From the NCBI GenBank assembly GCA_022819945.1, contig JAJEGI010000108.1, forward strand, positions 72,880 through 136,879: a stretch of DNA of 64,000 bases, read 5' to 3'. This document shows, piece by piece, positions 3,464 through 51,808 of the stretch; position 1 is the stretch's first letter, and every line of letters begins with the position of its first letter. The DNA is from Candidatus Poribacteria bacterium (GTDB lineage Bacteria > Poribacteria > WGA-4E > WGA-3G). The translations under genes and the position numbers were made by a program. The notes beneath the pieces were generated by a model, which made no database searches, was not told the DNA's origin, and saw only the letters and a program-made list of their open reading frames with translations.

Positions 3464-3505
3464 CTTGGAACGGCACAGAAACCGTTCCTATACGGATGAA
3501 AGCAC

Positions 3506-6641: not shown

Positions 6642-7556
6642 TTACATCATTTTCTCGATAATTGCATCGCCTTGTTCTTTGCTGATGCCGAGCGGTTGAT
6701 GTGCTATAGGCCCGTTTTCTAAAACAGGTTCCATTTCATTCAGTGATTGACGACTCGTATCGTGGTAGAACAACCCAAGCTGCGTTTCATGACCTGTCTT
6801 GACGGCTTGTTCGAGTGCAGCGGCCCTGTCACTTGTGTCATGATCTTCAAGGTATTGGACCCGCTCCTTCCAGTAATCGAAAATTACTCGCGCCCCTCCC
6901 TTCCAGGTCACACAAGGACTGATAACATCAATGAATGCAAATCCTTTGTGTTGCATCCCGTTATACATCAATTCCGCGAGTTTTGGTCCGTCAGAACTAT
7001 ATGCTCTTGCGACATAAGTCGCACCCGCGACAATTGCCATTGCGACTGGATTCAGAGGTGTCTCTAAATTACCGAACGGTGTACTTTTCGTCTCTTCTCC
7101 GACTATAGTCGTCGGTGAGGCTTGTCCGACTGTCAACCCGTACGTCTCGTTATTCATGACGATGTAGAGGAGATCAATATTTTTTCGCATCGTATGAATA
7201 AAATGATTTCCACCGATGCCGTAACCATCACCATCACCACCCGTGACGACAACATTCAACTCGTGATTGGCAAATTTAGCACCCGTTGCAACCGCCAACG
7301 CACGACCGTGGAGCGTATGCATCCCATACGTTTTGACATAACCAGGAAGGTTAGAGGAACACCCAATTCCACTTACTGTCAGGTGATCATGATTGCCACG
7401 ACCGAGTTTCGCATAAGCACTTTGTAGCGCGTTCAACACACCGAAATCACCACAACCGGCACACCAATCTGGGGTAACATCACCTTTAAAATCTCGCGCT
7501 GTCGGCGCGCCTTGAACAGGTCTTTCTCGTCTTGCTCTTCTCGCCATCTGATCCAT
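6642..7556 (-). CDS. korB: 2-oxoacid:ferredoxin oxidoreductase, beta (TPP-binding) subunit
   Basis: WCAGCGDFGV and GGDGDGYGIGGNH TPP-binding motifs. Located directly downstream of the alpha subunit. Confidence 0.9.
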   Translation of the reverse strand: MDQMARRARRERPVQGAPTARDFKGDVTPDWCAGCGDFGVLNALQSAYAKLGRGNHDHLTVSGIGCSSNLPGYVKTYGMHTLHGRALAVATGAKFANHELNVVVTGGDGDGYGIGGNHFIHTMRKNIDLLYIVMNNETYGLTVGQASPTTIVGEETKSTPFGNLETPLNPVAMAIVAGATYVARAYSSDGPKLAELMYNGMQHKGFAFIDVISPCVTWKGGARVIFDYWKERVQYLEDHDTSDRAAALEQAVKTGHETQLGLFYHDTSRQSLNEMEPVLENGPIAHQPLGISKEQGDAIIEKMM

Positions 7557-32412: not shown

Positions 32413-32441
32413 TTGACAAGCACTCTCAGCAATGTTATAAT
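32413..32441 (+). promoter_or_regulatory. Perfect extended sigma70 promoter TTGACA-17 nt-(TGT)TATAAT
   Basis: Read directly from the sequence. It faces the KTSC remnant and the DUF433/DUF5615 pair. Confidence 0.6.
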
Positions 32442-46187: not shown

Positions 46188-46252
46188 TGCCAAAAACAAA
46201 GTCACTTTCAATATGAGGCTATGTTGAGTAATCTCCGAACACACACTATAAT

Positions 46253-46293
46253 GGTTTTCCTACTACAAGCAGCCCGTTTGTAGTAGGAAAACC
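46253..46293 (+). terminator. 16-bp hairpin GGTTTTCCTACTACAA / TTGTAGTAGGAAAACC followed by TTT
   Basis: Perfect inverted repeat read directly from the sequence, 66 nt after the stop at 46187. Confidence 0.6.
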
Positions 46294-46413
46294 TTTCAGC
46301 GCCCGTCAATTTCCCAAGTCCAAGTTTTTCCAATTTTCATGAGATCATCTGCCGTATGTAGTTAACAACCAACTGCTAATAACCGAATGCCTCTGGATTT
46401 CGGGCTAAAAAAG

Positions 46414-46442
46414 TTGACACAGAAGTGAAAATATGTTATAAT
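46414..46442 (+). promoter_or_regulatory. Perfect extended sigma70 promoter TTGACA-17 nt-(TGT)TATAAT abutting the intron 5' end
   Basis: Read directly from the sequence. The -10 element ends 9 nt before GTGCG at 46452. Confidence 0.6.
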
Positions 46443-47256
46443 TAGGATATGGTGCGATTGGACAGGCACAAAATAACTGTGCATGAGCGCAAGCAATACA
46501 GCACTCGGTGAACCTAACACCGCATACTTTACCGTAACTGCGTTGATGGAAACGTCAAGGTGGGAAGCAACGGGACATGGAGACCAGCGAACACAAGGCA
46601 AAATTATTTTGGGAAAATCATAACCCAAATAACGTGCTAGCGAATTCCAGTAAGAACCGAAAAGTATAAGCGAAAGTTGAATATCCCAAAGCCCCGTTAA
46701 ATTAGATACGCGAGCCTTTGAGACGGCTATAATCGTCAAAAGCGTAGTATCATAAATAGTATACTCATGTTTTATACTATTAAATGATGTGCTTGTATTT
46801 CACATCATAAAAGTTTATTATTCACGGAATAAACTAATTAGGTTGATTGATACAAGGCTACGAAGTAGCACATCGGGGTAAAGGATAATACTAAATCGGT
46901 TTAGTTATCTTGTAGAGAGTCCAATAGAACCTAACCCGTCTTTTCTGTGAAAAGATGGCATGGTTGAGGAGATTGGAAAAAGTCAAGAATTTTTTCGGAC
47001 ATCTTAAAAAGGAATTTATCAGTACTGGGTTAACGTAGCAAGGTGGACGGTATTAACCGCCCACGCATCGCAAGGACGACTACAACCGTCCTCGCTCTCC
47101 CACGCTACTGGTGGACACCCCCAATACTAAGGCATTGTTGATGCTCATAAACAATTTAATAATGCCTTAGTATTCATAGAAAACCTGCAAAATTCTTTTC
47201 AAAGCCCAATCAGTGTCAATCCTTTAACAATTCTTTTCTCTGGAGAATTCTAAATC

Positions 47257-48999
47257 ATGAGTAATCAAAACTCAAGTAGAACAAGCACTCATAACACATT
47301 TACCGCATCCAATATAAGAAGATGCGAAAAATATGTTCTTGATATGCAGAAAAGACTTGACAAAGCGGTTGCCAATAATGACGTGAAAGCAATTCATAAT
47401 CTTTTTACTATCTTGGTTAAAAGGTCTTGGGCAGTGAAAGTTTTGGCAGTATGGAGAATAACATATCTCAACAACGGTAAATACACTGCTGGAATTGATG
47501 ATAAGAAAATTCCACATGCTACAAAACAACAACAGGACGAAATGAGATGGCGACTTCTACAAGAAATCAACATCAAATCAAATCCTGATGCTATCAGGCG
47601 TGTTTATATTCCGAAATCTAACGGCAAGAAACGACCGCTTGGCATACCCACCTTAAAAGACCGAATAAATCAAGAAATCCTTAGAATAGCACTTGATCCA
47701 ATAGTAGAATATCATTTTGACGATGACAGTTACGGTTTTAGACCAAAACGAAGTTGCCAAGATGCTATGAAAATGTTATTTATCTGCCTTTCAAGACAAG
47801 ACCGCAGACGCTACATAGTAGAAGGTGATATTAAAAGTTGTTTTGACAATATATCTCACAATCACATACTATGGACTTTACGGACTTGGAAAGTGCCGAT
47901 ATATGCCATACGCACTATTAAAAAGATGCTAAAAGCAAAGATATTTGATAAAGAAAAACTACACGAAAGCACACAAGGAACACCTCAAGGTGGAGTAATT
48001 TCACCGATGTTGTCTAATGTGGCGTTATCATCTTTTGACTACTACATCAGAAATCACACCGACCAAATAATGGTAAGATATGCTGATGATTTTGTGATTT
48101 TGTGTAAATCCAAATCACAGGCTAAGGAAGTTAAAAAGGACATATCTAAATATCTTAATAACACGATTGGCTTAACGCTATCAGAGGAAAAGACTCATAT
48201 CACTCATATCAAGAAAGGTTTTAATTTTCTAGGATTTACATTTAGAAAATATCCACAAACAGGGATACACAAACCTAAAGATATAAGTGATTATACCATG
48301 TTAGTTACACCTGATAAGGAAAGAACGAAAGACCGCATTTTGAAATTAAAAGATGTAATAAGCAAAGGCAAAGCCCTACCCCAAAACACGCTTATCACAC
48401 TTTTAAATCCGATACTTCGTGGCTGGAGTAATTACTATAGATACGTCAATAGTTCTAAAACATTTAGCAACATTGATTATTATTTATGGCGGAAACTTCT
48501 TAAATGGGGAAAACGGAGGCACAACAGAAAAGGCGGAAAGTGGGTTGTAGATAATTATTACACCAAAGACAACAAAGGGCTTATCTTTGGCAAAAGACCC
48601 AATCCTTTACTTATCAGGCTTACCGATACAACTTTATTAAGTTTTATCAAAGTAAGAAAAGGAAAAAGAGTCTATAGTAAAAGTGATTCTGATTATTGGA
48701 CAAAACGGGAATATGCGTTGGTTAATCAGAATTTATCAGAAATGAATAAACGACTACTTAAAAAGCAAAAGGGCAAATGCCCACATTGCAATAACCCTTT
48801 TGCTTTAGATGATAAATTACATACTCATCATATATTTCCAAAAGCACTCGGAGGCAACGATAGTTATAGCAACCTTCAACTACTGCATGCCGAATGCCAT
48901 CGTGAGTTACATTCCAAAAGGGGATATGGTGTTAGTTCGGCAACACACCCGACTGCCAATCGGGACTCGCAGGTTCGAGACCTGTTATCTCCAATTTGA
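47257..48999 (+). CDS. Group II intron reverse transcriptase/maturase with HNH endonuclease domain
   Basis: RT motifs (RRVYIPKSNGKKRPLGIPT, YGFRP, VRYADDFVI), X domain (LNPILRGWSNYYRY) and HNH (CPHCNN...HHIFPKALGG...LLHAECHRELH). The last 26 codons read through the tRNA-like sequence, so the native C-terminus is uncertain. Confidence 0.9.
   Translation: MSNQNSSRTSTHNTFTASNIRRCEKYVLDMQKRLDKAVANNDVKAIHNLFTILVKRSWAVKVLAVWRITYLNNGKYTAGIDDKKIPHATKQQQDEMRWRLLQEINIKSNPDAIRRVYIPKSNGKKRPLGIPTLKDRINQEILRIALDPIVEYHFDDDSYGFRPKRSCQDAMKMLFICLSRQDRRRYIVEGDIKSCFDNISHNHILWTLRTWKVPIYAIRTIKKMLKAKIFDKEKLHESTQGTPQGGVISPMLSNVALSSFDYYIRNHTDQIMVRYADDFVILCKSKSQAKEVKKDISKYLNNTIGLTLSEEKTHITHIKKGFNFLGFTFRKYPQTGIHKPKDISDYTMLVTPDKERTKDRILKLKDVISKGKALPQNTLITLLNPILRGWSNYYRYVNSSKTFSNIDYYLWRKLLKWGKRRHNRKGGKWVVDNYYTKDNKGLIFGKRPNPLLIRLTDTTLLSFIKVRKGKRVYSKSDSDYWTKREYALVNQNLSEMNKRLLKKQKGKCPHCNNPFALDDKLHTHHIFPKALGGNDSYSNLQLLHAECHRELHSKRGYGVSSATHPTANRDSQVRDLLSPI
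48920..48993 (+). tRNA. tRNA-like gene, anticodon GCC (Gly), embedded in the intron and overlapping the IEP 3' end
   Basis: Hand-folded cloverleaf. Acceptor GGGGATA/TATCTCC (G3:U70 wobble). D stem GTGT/ACAC with GG in the loop. Anticodon stem CCCGA/TCGGG with loop CTGCCAA. 4-nt variable loop. T stem GCAGG/CCTGT with loop TTCGAGA. Discriminator A. Position 14 is U rather than A, and CCA is not encoded. Confidence 0.6.
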
Positions 49000-49094
49000 A
49001 ATTTAATTCACGATAAACGTTTTGTCGATTGACTTTCAGTAAACCAAGCAGGCTCACAATTTTATCAATTGTTTGCTTACTATGAGGTGAAATA

Positions 49095-49502
49095 ATGAAA
49101 GATAAAATTGTATTCTTTATTTTAGGAATGCTTGTAATAACTGCAGTAATCATCACAGAAAGAGTGAATTCACCAGTTGCACAAGTAGATACACAAGTCT
49201 TTGAAAATGTATTAATTAGAGGTAAACTAATCATTGAGGACGGAGATAATAGAATTACTCTGGAAAACAAAGATGGTGCTTCTAATATAATAATTGATTC
49301 TAAAGGCTGCGGTATTGCACTGAGTGCTAAGGAAGATAATGCTACAGTTCTCGTTATAAACGATATACAAGACAAAGGGAAACTTGGCATTCCAAAAGGT
49401 ATAGCGTTGTATACTACGAGAGACCAAGCAACAAATGAAAAAGGCTCACTCATTTATATGCAAGATGATAAAGGTATGAAAATTTCAACCACTACAGATT
49501 AA
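49095..49502 (+). CDS. Hypothetical membrane-anchored 135-aa protein (intron cargo ORF)
   Basis: GAGGTGA SD 7 nt before the ATG. N-terminal TM segment (IVFFILGMLVITAVIIT) followed by a beta-rich D/G/N/K-rich domain. No recognisable family. Confidence 0.55.
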   Translation: MKDKIVFFILGMLVITAVIITERVNSPVAQVDTQVFENVLIRGKLIIEDGDNRITLENKDGASNIIIDSKGCGIALSAKEDNATVLVINDIQDKGKLGIPKGIALYTTRDQATNEKGSLIYMQDDKGMKISTTTD

Positions 49503-49520
49503 AATTTTCATTGGTTTTGC

Positions 49521-49549
49521 TTGAAATACTAATCAAAATGTGTTATAAT
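49521..49549 (+). promoter_or_regulatory. Sigma70-type promoter TTGAAA-17 nt-(TGT)TATAAT inside the intron, 44 nt before domain V
   Basis: Read directly from the sequence. Confidence 0.45.
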
Positions 49550-49592
49550 ACACAAAATCAAATGTAATAAAAGTCGTTATTGTTGACATGGA

Positions 49593-49667
49593 AAGCCGTG
49601 TGCGGTGAAAGTCGCACGCACGGTTTGGGGAGAGGGGCTAGAAGGCGACTTTTAGTCCCTACTCTAC
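49593..49667 (+). ncRNA. Group II intron domains V and VI
   Basis: Domain V is AAGCCGTGTGCGGT-GAAA-GTCGCACGCACGGTTT: an 8-bp lower stem with the AGC triad, a 2-nt CG bulge, a 6-bp upper stem and a GAAA loop. Domain VI is an 11-bp helix (49630-49640 paired with 49653-49664) with a single bulged A at 49661, 6 nt before the 3' end. Confidence 0.85.
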
Positions 49668-49859: not shown

Positions 49860-50813
49860 ATGAATAGCAGAACTTCCGGCCTGCTCAGTCAAATGCGAGA
49901 ACGTCGAGCGGAACGAAAAAAACCGAAGCGTTTTGTCGCATTGAAGAAGGTTACGCTGGATTCCAGCCAGCAGCACCACATTTCCGAGGCACAAGCGAAT
50001 CTGCCGAAACACCCCATCACGCAAAAACATATTAAAAAGAGTTCCACCGCGTTTTCAGTCGCAATGTTGTTTCATATCCTCATCGCTATATTCATTGGAA
50101 CTTACGTTATCGTTGAGCGGATTGAGTATGAAGATGAAACATTTGATGTGAGTATGGTCGTAGAAGAGTCAAAAACGAAACGCCGACTCATACGTAGGAA
50201 GACAACGCAGTTTGACTCAAAAACGGAACGCCAACAACCCGTTTTCAAGCAACCCGTAAGGACAGATACTGCCCAATTGCCTTCAAAGGATGGGTTCACA
50301 ATCCCTCAAGGTCCAGAAACAGGGTTTGATCTTACAACGCCAGAAACGAGTACAGGGCCCGCGCTTATAAATGTTGACCGAAATTTTGTACAACCTACAA
50401 CGACAATCGAACCTGAAACCAAGGCACCAGGCTTTGAACTCGAGCGCGACGCACCAACACTGATAAATAAACTTGATACCCCTGATGCTAATGTAGGACC
50501 CGGGTTGGATAACATTAACTTTACGCCTGAGCCAGGCGTTGTTGAGCCCAAGTATAAAGTTAAAGTGAAGCCGAAGTATCCAGAAAGTGCTAAGAAAGCA
50601 GGGAAGGAAGGCACTGTTCTTTTGCAAGCAACCATTGACGAAAATGGTATTCCAAAAGACATTGTGGCATTGACTAACCTCGGATTTGGGTTTGAGGCAG
50701 CAGCAATTGAGGCGCTGAAAAAAGCGACTTTTCGTCCGGCGACGAAGGCTGGTAAACCTATCACCCTTAAAGAGGTTCAAATACCCTACGAGTTTAAACT
50801 TGAAGAGGACTAA
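49860..50813 (+). CDS. TonB-family energy transducer (paralogue 1)
   Basis: N-terminal TM segment (FSVAMLFHILIAIFIGTYVIV), Pro/Thr-rich linker and TonB C-terminal domain (KPKYPESAKKAGKEGTVLLQATIDENG...ATFRPATKAGKPI). Confidence 0.85.
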   Translation: MNSRTSGLLSQMRERRAERKKPKRFVALKKVTLDSSQQHHISEAQANLPKHPITQKHIKKSSTAFSVAMLFHILIAIFIGTYVIVERIEYEDETFDVSMVVEESKTKRRLIRRKTTQFDSKTERQQPVFKQPVRTDTAQLPSKDGFTIPQGPETGFDLTTPETSTGPALINVDRNFVQPTTTIEPETKAPGFELERDAPTLINKLDTPDANVGPGLDNINFTPEPGVVEPKYKVKVKPKYPESAKKAGKEGTVLLQATIDENGIPKDIVALTNLGFGFEAAAIEALKKATFRPATKAGKPITLKEVQIPYEFKLEED

Positions 50814-50860
50814 ACACACCGCTTGTTATCCTTCGTTCTTACTTATAGGAGAAAAAGCGA

Positions 50861-51808
50861 ATGAATAGCAGAACTTCCGGCTTGCTCAGTCAAATGCGAG
50901 AACGTCGCGCAGAACGAAAAAAACCGAAGCGTTTTGTCGCATTGAAGAAGGTTACGCTGGATCCCAGTCAGCAGAGCCATATTTCCGAGGCACAAGCGAA
51001 TCTGCCGAAACACCCCATCACGCAAAAACATATTAAAAAGAGTTCCACCGCGTTTTCAGTCGCAATGTTGTTTCATGTCCTCATCGCTATATTCATTACG
51101 ACCTACGTGATCGTCGACCGGATTGAACAGGAGGATGTGGTATTTGATGTGAGTATGATCGTAGAAGAGTCGAAAACGAAACGCCAACTCATACGTAGGA
51201 AGACAACGCAGTTTGACTCGAAAACGCAACAGCAGAAACCCGTTTTCAAGCAACCCGTAAGGACAGATACTGCCCAATTGCCTTCAAAGGATGGGTTCAC
51301 AATCCCTGAAGGTCCAGGAACAGCACTTGACCTTACAACGCCAGATGCCAATGAAGGCCCCTCACTCATAGATGTTAACCGGAATTTCGTACAACCCACG
51401 ACAACAATCGAACCTGAAACCAAGGCACCAGGCTTTGAACTCGAGCGCGACGCACCAACACTGATAAATAAACTCGATACCCCTGATGCCAAGGCAGCAC
51501 CCGGGTTGGATAACATTAACTTTACTCCCGAGCCTGGAGTCGTCCCACCGAAAATTATCCTCGCAGAAAAAAAGTATCCAGAGAGAGCGAAAAAGGCAGG
51601 AAAGGAAGGCGAGGTTATTTTGCAACTGACCATTGATGAAAAGGGTATTCCTAAAGACATTGTCCCCTTGACAAACATCGGATTTGGGCTTGAGGAGGCA
51701 GCGATCGAGTTGTTGAAGAAGAGCACTTTCCGACCTGCTACGAAGGGTGGAAAGCCGATAAGTCTTCTGATCGAAATACCTATTGACTTTAAACTTGAAG
51801 ATGAATAA
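50861..51808 (+). CDS. TonB-family energy transducer (paralogue 2, tandem duplicate)
   Basis: Collinear with 49860-50813, including the RBS region. Most positions are identical by eye. Confidence 0.85.
   Translation: MNSRTSGLLSQMRERRAERKKPKRFVALKKVTLDPSQQSHISEAQANLPKHPITQKHIKKSSTAFSVAMLFHVLIAIFITTYVIVDRIEQEDVVFDVSMIVEESKTKRQLIRRKTTQFDSKTQQQKPVFKQPVRTDTAQLPSKDGFTIPEGPGTALDLTTPDANEGPSLIDVNRNFVQPTTTIEPETKAPGFELERDAPTLINKLDTPDAKAAPGLDNINFTPEPGVVPPKIILAEKKYPERAKKAGKEGEVILQLTIDEKGIPKDIVPLTNIGFGLEEAAIELLKKSTFRPATKGGKPISLLIEIPIDFKLEDE

Follow-up and report, generated by a model that had tools for sequence, protein, structure and literature searches.

A IIB-like group II intron of Candidatus Poribacteria with a conserved accessory module in domain IV and a position behind a host promoter

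Positions 46452–49667 of a 64,000-nt window of Candidatus Poribacteria DNA (contig JAJEGI010000108.1), the whole stretch that was analysed, hold on the forward strand one complete group II intron of 3,216 nt; the label IIB-like, used for it here, reflects shared features and not a formal subclass assignment. Coordinates are positions in the window unless a locus is named, and L-numbers denote the compared loci or contigs. The segment of domain IV (DIV) that follows the gene of the intron-encoded protein (IEP) is a lineage-specific, heritable accessory module with a variable cargo slot. It is considered likely that the element is a mobile intron that captures a host promoter by inserting behind it and, through this module, resupplies the operon from an outward-facing promoter. 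The lineage has so far been seen in Poribacteria-type contigs only, and several source records of the IEP relatives are named Candidatus Poribacteria.

The extent of the element follows from two intron-less orthologous loci, L019 (MKWU01010033.1) and L023, which were located by searching metagenome contigs with the upstream DUF5916 protein. At both loci the promoter known from the window comes after the DUF5916 gene and leads directly into the TonB-like genes. The L019 sequence, ...TGTTATAATTAGGATATA^TTTGCACTAAAATTG..., is base-for-base colinear with the window flanks joined at 46451/49668, and comparison of the window flanks with the L019/L023 junction reveals no target-site duplication. Since the flanks join exactly, the entire 3,216 nt, including a tRNA gene, a second open reading frame (ORF2) and an internal promoter-like element, represent a single precise insertion.

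The 5′ end of the intron is the GTGCG at 46452, which agrees with the GUGYG consensus and is kept in all relatives. At the 3′ end, the Rfam model RF00029 (domains V and VI; D5 and D6) matches positions 49591–49667 with 69.8 bits (gathering score 40, E = 1e-11), and the alignment contains an AGC triad, a 2-nt bulge, a GAAA loop, a bulged A at 49661 and a ...CUCUAC 3′ end. A preliminary description of this DNA, made from the sequence alone, had regarded both ribozyme ends as intact on the strength of the GTGCG, a textbook D5 and the bulged A of D6, and the Rfam match bears this out. The D6 stems differ among relatives through compensatory changes.

The same description proposed a covariance-model check of domains I–IV (D1–D4), which gave a divided result. 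No Rfam D1–D4 model matched the window intron at its gathering threshold, and the best match, RF02012 (D1-D4-7) over 46504–46636, reached 30.7 bits against a gathering score of 34. Comparative covariation was therefore used for the 5′ half, which it backs. The RNAalifold consensus for D1, computed from the aligned 5′ parts of six related introns, comprises 99 predicted pairs, with 93% of cells paired and 50 pairs showing compensatory changes; none of 500 shuffles equalled it and slid controls were 33–39% paired, figures that are generous in that the structure was derived from the same alignment on which it was tested. The long-range helices that close D1 (helices 2 and 3) carry compensatory changes at 13 of 17 pairs.

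Recognition of the 5′ exon can be followed through exon-binding site 1 (EBS1) and its exon partner, intron-binding site 1 (IBS1). In the window these form six pairs, three of them G-U. In L001, L003, L005, L013, L014 and L016 the homologous EBS1 loop complements the 5′ exon, and in L010 it does so at five of six positions; it thereby fits five different 5′-exon sequences. The EBS1/IBS1 pairs read TGTATT/AATATA in L001, AGCAACG/CGTTGCT in L013, GCGTTA/TAACGC in L014 and L016, GAGCGT/ACGCTC in L003 and CTAACCT/AGGTTAG in L005. Such covariation of loop and 5′ exon is what identifies EBS1/IBS1 in group II introns. The element carries the features by which mobile group II introns are recognised, except for an above-threshold D1–D4 model and for EBS2 and EBS3. 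A complementarity between the EBS1 hairpin and the Shine–Dalgarno sequence of ORF2 is not conserved in relatives and was treated as chance.

Two relatives depart from this layout. L017 has two GTGCG motifs at a distance of 31 nt (3469–3500). Its EBS1 loop, TGTATGT, fits the ATATACA before the first, and the sequence after the second aligns with the 5′ ends of other introns; an older insertion may have left this doubling behind, or the 5′ end may have been duplicated. At L005 (7280–7421), D6 holds an insertion of ~130 nt containing a promoter-like TTGACA...TATTAT, and although the Rfam match stops at 7360, the actual 3′ terminus of the intron (CCTACTCTAC) is position 7421. In the window, a GC-rich segment of three hairpins lies between domain III and the IEP start (47037–47110), for which Rfam returned only one chance-level match (LOOT, 24.9 bits); L011 and L003 have weak tRNA-like elements at the equivalent place.

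The IEP carries the reverse transcriptase (RT), maturase and HNH domains that had been noticed in the sequence, as Pfam confirms: the RVT_1 match has an E-value of 6e-44, the YADD motif is present and internal stops are absent. The closest solved structure is 6ME0 chain C ('Maturase reverse transcriptase'), which aligns end to end with E = 3e-95; the structure search gave the molecule name only, and we take 6ME0 to be the Thermosynechococcus T.el4h IIB intron. Identity to the top plasmid-borne IEP matches listed from PLSDB is at most 39%, and a scan of genome contigs with the IEP returned one true relative only, L011. Other relatives came from further contigs, with IEP identities to the window of 76% (L002), 66% (L014/L015 and L016), 65% (L010), 64% (L005–L009), 59% (L003/L004), 56% (L013) and 45% (L017/L018). 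L001 represents the same TonB locus as the window in a related strain.

The functional part of the IEP ends near 48916. Its last 26 codons, with the tail ...RGYGVSSATHPTANRDSQVRDLLSPI, are read-through of the tRNA gene, and the IEPs of relatives stop a few to ~21 residues past the HNH motif CHxE[LI]H. From the IEP stop to D5 the distance is 594 nt, in line with the ~590 nt first estimated. The last ~75 nt of the functional IEP reading frame (48841–48916 and the equivalents in L001, L002 and L003) are 98–100% identical between sublineages whose IEP genes are otherwise 50–85% identical; recombination may have produced this tract, or it may be an RNA element that overlaps the end of the HNH coding sequence.

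In the segment after the IEP, the 135-codon ORF preceded by a Shine–Dalgarno sequence that the preliminary description had pointed out is present as ORF2. Its ratio of nonsynonymous to synonymous substitution rates (dN/dS) of 0.23–0.39 indicates a real coding gene under purifying selection. AlphaFold2 predicts an N-terminal transmembrane helix followed by an eight-strand beta meander (predicted local distance difference test score, pLDDT, 83). ORF2 has no Pfam match, and Foldseek found nothing in the PDB below E = 0.18. The close family comprises 21 clusters among 5.8 billion proteins, and every member on the inspected contigs lies directly downstream of an intron IEP. Homologues of 130–146 aa occupy this place in L001–L010 and L013–L018. 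No ORF2 relatives were found in IMG/VR viral contigs or in a scan of genome contigs with the ORF2 profile.

ORF2 and the promoter-like motif recur as a module in every related intron with a readable post-IEP region, except that ORF2 is absent from L011. The relatives carrying the module have IEPs 45–76% identical to that of the window and occupy four further genomic sites, five when that of the window is counted. L011, from a Poribacteria metagenome-assembled genome, has an IEP 79% identical to that of L013 and sits at the same ATP-synthase site; it keeps the promoter motif and carries a different cargo ORF of 175 aa (Table 1). As read from its sequence, the product of this ORF has a lipoprotein-like signal (LWVTAC), a His-rich N-terminus and a HDHEHDHEHSHE run and is possibly metal-binding; no above-threshold Pfam match was obtained for it. 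In L010 the spacer measures 427 nt and a further ORF of 85 aa is present. That positions 49000–49590 might be ordinary conserved intron sequence, a doubt raised at the outset, therefore holds only in part: the segment is conserved in relatives, but as a lineage-specific accessory module and not as ordinary ribozyme sequence. The original proposal that DIV carries genes unneeded for ribozyme or RT function, and that natural cargo of this kind is unusual, stands.

These data also bear on the alternative that tRNA, ORF and promoter arrived recently in an ordinary intron, brought either by a foreign mobile element or as a fragment of host DNA. L002 lacks the tRNA, which makes the tRNA segment (~90 nt plus flanks) an indel relative to a close relative, and distant relatives of ORF2 do occur outside introns. 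A profile search of 1.8 billion representative proteins gave 75 ORF2 matches at E ≤ 0.001, some of them more distant small proteins built in the same way, and the two of these distant relatives that could be placed are both outside introns in variable regions. In L100 (4843–7912) the relative lies among small ORFs beside a GIY-YIG/NUMOD3 homing-endonuclease-like gene, and in L101 (4787–6785) among small ORFs beside an IS1595 transposase and an AAA_21/DUF4276 pair. Their existence makes a single ancient capture of ORF2 probable, by which a gene from a larger accessory family entered the intron lineage. A recent landing is very improbable: among the sampled relatives, whose IEP identities go down to 45%, all have the motif and all but L011 have ORF2, so that any capture must be ancient, and comparison with the empty sites shows intron and cargo as one indel. 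Around 48917–49590 there is no transposase, second D5, terminal inverted repeat or target duplication, and RF00029 matches once, which also leaves the suggestion of a nested insertion or twintron unsupported. An assembly chimera at 48920 or 49590 has a negligible probability, and nothing was found in its favour: the order IEP–tRNA–ORF2–motif–D5 recurs in independent assemblies from different samples (L001, L003, L004), and the same order without the tRNA in L002 and more than 10 further contigs.

The tRNA-like gene of the preliminary description is a real tRNA gene, placed differently from what had been supposed: it does not lie in the 590-nt spacer and overlaps the last 26 codons of the IEP reading frame. 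ARAGORN classifies it as tRNA-Gly(GCC), and RF00005 matches with 51.8 bits (gathering score 29). L001 and L003/L004 share a tRNA identical at 74 of 74 positions, from which that of the window differs by 1 nt. The identity between L001 and L003 falls within a 98%-identical tract that also spans the last 75 nt of the IEP; it was dropped as evidence of selection, recent recombination being equally possible. Across the lineage, intron tRNA genes occupy three different positions: the IEP end (window, L001, L003/L004), a ~250-nt insertion in D1 (L003, tRNA-Ala(GGC), 66.8 bits), and a place upstream of the IEP (L017/L018, tRNA-Val(GAC), 66.2 bits; L003, a weak tRNA of 33 bits). A tRNA-like remnant seen by eye at the IEP end of L010 found no support from ARAGORN or Rfam and was discarded.

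The acceptor stem of the window tRNA reads G1-C72, G2-C71, G3-U70 and G4-C69, with A73 followed by ATT. G3-U70 and A73 form the alanine identity set, and the anticodon GCC reads glycine codons; the bacterial glycine set, U73, C2-G71 and G3-C70, is absent. Identity elements and anticodon of the window tRNA thus disagree. The D1-borne tRNA of L003 (3304–3376) likewise combines an alanine anticodon, GGC, with C3-G70 and U73. Origin as a retro-copied mature tRNA is unsupported, as CCA is not encoded. If charged by alanyl-tRNA synthetase, the window tRNA would insert alanine at glycine codons, and a tRNA with mismatched identity elements borne by a mobile element would bear on natural mistranslation. 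Hypothetically, a cut by RNase P at the 5′ end of the tRNA would leave the IEP mRNA without a stop codon.

The host promoter in front of the intron, like the overlap of tRNA and IEP and the promoter-proximal placement of all relatives, had been missed in the preliminary description. It matches the σ70 consensus throughout (Table 1). The empty sites L019 and L023 have this promoter too; it is thus host-owned, and an origin within the intron was rejected. The distance from the end of the −10 box to GTGCG is 9–13 nt in 10 loci at five genomic sites: 9 nt in the window, L001, L005, L010, L014 and L016, 11 nt in L003, 13 nt in L011 and L013, and 10 nt in L017, counted to the first of its two GTGCG motifs, the one that its EBS1 loop fits. 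Most of the intron-adjacent host promoters score 11–12 of 12 with an extended −10. The operons downstream encode two TonB-like proteins (window), ATP synthase (L013, L011), Rieske/cytochrome b proteins (L010, L014, L016 and probably L003), and yggS-like, proC, ileS and lspA products (L017).

A further promoter with a full consensus match, TTGACA-17-TGTTATAAT, lies elsewhere in the window at 32413–32441 and is not followed by an intron; strong promoters are thus not all occupied. The DUF5916 gene, upstream of the occupied promoter, is followed at 46250–46296 by a long, perfectly paired hairpin (GGTTTTCCTACTACAA...TTGTAGTAGGAAAACC) and then TTTC. The hairpin is probably the terminator of that gene and would limit read-through into the intron; in Rfam it gave only chance-level miRNA matches. 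The two TonB-like paralogues downstream are almost the same over their N-terminal halves, as are the antisense ORFs found where each gene starts, and L019 aligns to both copies. From these similarities the pair looks like a recent tandem duplication of ~1 kb.

The near-consensus promoter sequence that had been reported inside the intron is likewise present, oriented through D5/D6 into the host operon. Related introns have a TTGnnn-17-TATAAT motif between the cargo ORF and D5, 35–47 nt before the D5 match. It reads TTGAAA-17/18-TGTTATAAT in the window and L002, TTGCCT-17-TATAAT in L001, TTGCGA-17-TATAAT in L011 and TTGGTT-17-TATAAT in L003, L005, L013 and L016, and it is degenerate in L014 (TATAAA) and L017 (TATAAC). 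Promoter-like matches in the region are not above chance (14 observed, 12.3 expected), and the weight of the internal element therefore rests on its strength and on its conservation in relatives. Sites that reach 11 of 12 with TG number only four on both strands of the 64-kb window (128 kb). From its sequence we infer that the element acts as a promoter. The host promoter (46414–46442) and the internal element (49521–49549) form a 29-nt direct repeat that is 76% identical, with 14 of 15 matches in AAAAT(A/G)TGTTATAAT; this reflects either chance among strong promoters or copying.

An RNA-level function of the motif, as a DIV stem or a protein-binding site, would leave the operon to rely on read-through and splicing. 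This explanation would suit the conservation of the spacer beyond the hexamers in most relatives (ttt.ct.attgattattg), the motif scores of 9 of 12 in most relatives, the degenerate forms in L014 and L017, and the chance-level match count of the region. It is nonetheless unlikely, since the variant in the window and L002 has a different spacer and yet retains both hexamers and the 17–18 nt spacing, with an added extended −10, and since L011 retains the motif despite its other cargo ORF. Orientation and position suit a promoter that drives D5/D6 and the operon, and polarity in the interrupted ATP-synthase and cytochrome bc operons should be costly.

The TonB site is polymorphic, the intron being present in the window and L001 and absent from L019 and L023. 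Between the window and L001, the ribozyme, IEP and tRNA are 98–100% identical (IEP 98%), the host flanks 85–95%, the stretch from ORF2 to D5 52–76% (ORF2 57%) and D5/D6 78%. At the Rieske site, the Laminin_G_3 flank protein of L003 is 83–84% identical to those of L010, L014 and L016, and the IEP only 55–56%; the L003 intron lies 2 nt further downstream than its neighbours at this site, with a matching EBS1, and by these comparisons L003 is an independent occupant. The L005 IEP is 74–76% identical to those of the Rieske-site introns, as close as those are to each other, and is found at a different site with a different EBS1, a combination that, read from sequence, shows retargeting.

These observations weigh on the alternative that the element is a domesticated or fossil leader, fixed long ago and inherited vertically without moving or splicing, in which ORF2 and the tRNA are host genes and the internal promoter is simply the working promoter of the operon. 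Occupation of the Laminin_G_3/Rieske–cytochrome b site in four assemblies and of the ATP-synthase site in two is what such a fixation would leave, IEP clades largely track sites, and the very short 5′ exon and the G-U-rich EBS1/IBS1 of the window speak against efficient splicing. This alternative is distinctly unlikely in view of the IEP reading frames, which are intact in 11 of 11 loci with dN/dS of 0.10–0.22, of an EBS1 that tracks each 5′ exon, and of the presence and absence of the intron at the TonB site. An intron more similar between window and L001 than the flanks around it, an independent occupant offset by 2 nt (L003) and the retargeting in L005 also stand against it.

The identity patterns indicate that modules are exchanged among introns. 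ORF2 of L003 and L013 is 82% identical, at 60% for the IEP, and the 98%-identical tract, which the window, L002 and L003 have in common, takes in the final 75 nt of the IEP and in L003 extends through the tRNA. The 5′ and 3′ modules may be reshuffled between co-resident introns by homologous recombination or by RT template switching. Template switching is a known property of group II intron RTs (PMC8363836).

In the favoured reading, that of a mobile intron with a heritable DIV module, the captured host promoter would transcribe the intron RNA, the IEP, the tRNA and ORF2, and the internal promoter would restore transcription of the displaced host operon, with D5/D6 within the leader. Expression of the host genes would then be independent of splicing of a 3-kb intron. 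The lineage would home preferentially to the initially transcribed region of strong promoters, through EBS1/IBS1 pairing and IEP contacts with the −10 region. Cargo in loops of DIV, D1 and domain II (D2) would be tolerated, presumably because domain IV lies outside the catalytic core.

Several points weigh against this reading. ORF2 has no recognisable fold or function, the D1–D4 model match is sub-threshold, and half of the window EBS1/IBS1 pairs are G-U. Complements that could serve as EBS2/IBS2 and EBS3/IBS3 exist (for example CTAATT at 46834–46839), but not at homologous positions in relatives. The internal motif scores only 9–10 of 12 in most relatives (9 of 12 as TTGGTT-17-TATAAT) and is degenerate in L014 and L017, and its conservation could reflect RNA structure. 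Promoter adjacency rests on five independent sites drawn from database matches, which are not a census, and could partly reflect the survival of harmless insertions and not targeting. Transcription is expected to start ~7 nt after the −10 box, which leaves only 3–7 nt of 5′ exon in the primary transcript. An exon of ~3 nt would leave EBS1/IBS1 largely unpaired, and efficient 5′ splicing from a promoter-driven transcript is doubtful.

A bolder form of the proposal would make the lineage a promoter-homing retroelement and natural gene-delivery platform, which recognises the −10 and initially transcribed region of strong σ70 promoters, seizes the promoter for its own expression, repays the host with a replacement promoter and shuttles exchangeable cargo, including identity-mismatched tRNAs. 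It is offered tentatively, as a possibility that at present has less than even support.

Table 1. Features of the intron and its surroundings, with the alternative cargo ORF of L011; coordinates of the last row are those of L011.
Feature	Coordinates	Strand	Basis or remarks
Complete group II intron, IIB-like	46452–49667	+	Empty sites L019/L023, Rfam D5/D6, D1 covariation
Host σ70 promoter, TTGACA-17-TGTTATAAT, of the TonB-like operon	46414–46442	+	12/12 with extended −10; ends 9 nt before the intron
IBS1 (GATATG), last 6 nt of the 5′ exon	46446–46451	+	Pairs with the EBS1 loop
Domain I, from 5′ GUGCG, closed by long-range helices 46457–46476/46905–46925	46452–46930	+	RNAalifold, six introns
EBS1 (TGTATT), loop of hairpin 46783–46808	46794–46799	+	Complementarity to the 5′ exon
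IEP, 580 codons: RT, maturase X, D and HNH endonuclease	47257–48999	+	Pfam RVT_N, RVT_1, GIIM, HNH
tRNA gene, anticodon GCC	48920–48993	+	ARAGORN, Rfam; canonical cloverleaf, G3-U70 and A73, no CCA encoded
ORF2 Shine–Dalgarno sequence GAGGTG	49084–49089	+	Sequence; GAGGTG/GAGGTA or AAGG kept in relatives
ORF2, 135-aa cargo protein	49095–49502	+	ORF list; conserved family
Internal outward-facing promoter-like element, TTGAAA-17-TGTTATAAT	49521–49549	+	11/12 plus TG; 41 nt before the D5 match
Domain V	49593–49626	+	RF00029 alignment; near-identical in relatives
Domain VI, bulged branch A 49661, intron 3′ end ...CCUACUCUAC	49628–49667	+	RF00029 alignment
Host operon, two tandem TonB-like genes (49860–50813, 50861–51808)	49860–51808	+	Pfam TonB_C on the first; the second is a close paralogue
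L011 alternative cargo ORF, 175 aa, unrelated to ORF2	6794–7321		Replaces ORF2 after the IEP

Bacterial group II introns are usually seen as minimal retroelements, consisting of a ribozyme and one protein, that stay harmless because they splice out or because they insert into other mobile DNA or downstream of terminators. An incomplete search of the literature returned no described natural bacterial group II intron with a conserved second ORF after the IEP, an embedded tRNA, an outward promoter or a promoter-proximal niche, and we know of none. The consistent placement 9–13 nt behind the −10 box of housekeeping promoters suggests a route by which a retroelement could secure its expression. The outward promoter may neutralise polarity, which would be a form of cost avoidance independent of splicing. 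The lineage also offers a natural test of the cargo capacity of DIV, D1 and D2, and of group II intron function with an almost absent 5′ exon.

The nearest known systems are the mobile bacterial group IIB introns of the chloroplast-like type, with IEPs of RT, X, D and endonuclease (En) domains. The window intron shares with them the 5′ GUGCG, the EBS1 loop in D1, the 34-nt D5, the D6 with a bulged A, an IEP in DIV with RVT_N, RT, X and HNH domains, and precise insertion without target duplication. It differs in the ~600 nt of post-IEP DIV with a tRNA, a second ORF and a promoter-like motif, and the lineage differs in that all its sites are promoter-proximal and not within genes or mobile elements. 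Insertion sequences with outward promoters and prophage 'morons' are mobile elements that supply a promoter or small accessory genes, often for membrane or secreted proteins and dispensable for the mobility of the element. The analogy with these is functional only, as the element here is a retroelement ribozyme, distinct in type and mechanism from DNA transposons and phages.

Group II introns with non-RT ORFs, such as those for LAGLIDADG proteins (PMC13190283), and twintrons resemble the present element in that DIV or peripheral loops host unrelated coding sequence. In those cases the RT has given way to the foreign ORF, or the insert is itself an intron, whereas the window intron keeps its RT and its extra ORF has no nuclease or mobility domain. 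Class C (IIC) introns, which insert after transcription terminators (PMC4028801), share with this lineage targets that are defined by a class of transcription signal and not by a single gene. Class C introns, however, are of small size, have no En domain and find their targets by recognising terminator stem–loops; the present lineage is IIB-like with HNH and is sited after promoter −10 boxes, which it may target.

The closest parallel in cargo is found in engineered targetrons, which carry cargo genes best in the DIV loop (PMC3898094). Foreign genes, in some cases together with a promoter of their own, are there inserted into DIV, where they harm mobility least, and travel with the intron (PMC3898094). 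Targetrons are laboratory constructs from which the RT has usually been moved out of the intron, whereas this lineage has natural cargo, including tRNA genes, after an IEP that remains in place, conserved over deep divergence. The lineage would thus add natural, heritable and exchangeable DIV cargo, in the form of protein and tRNA genes, that mirrors what targetron engineering has built.

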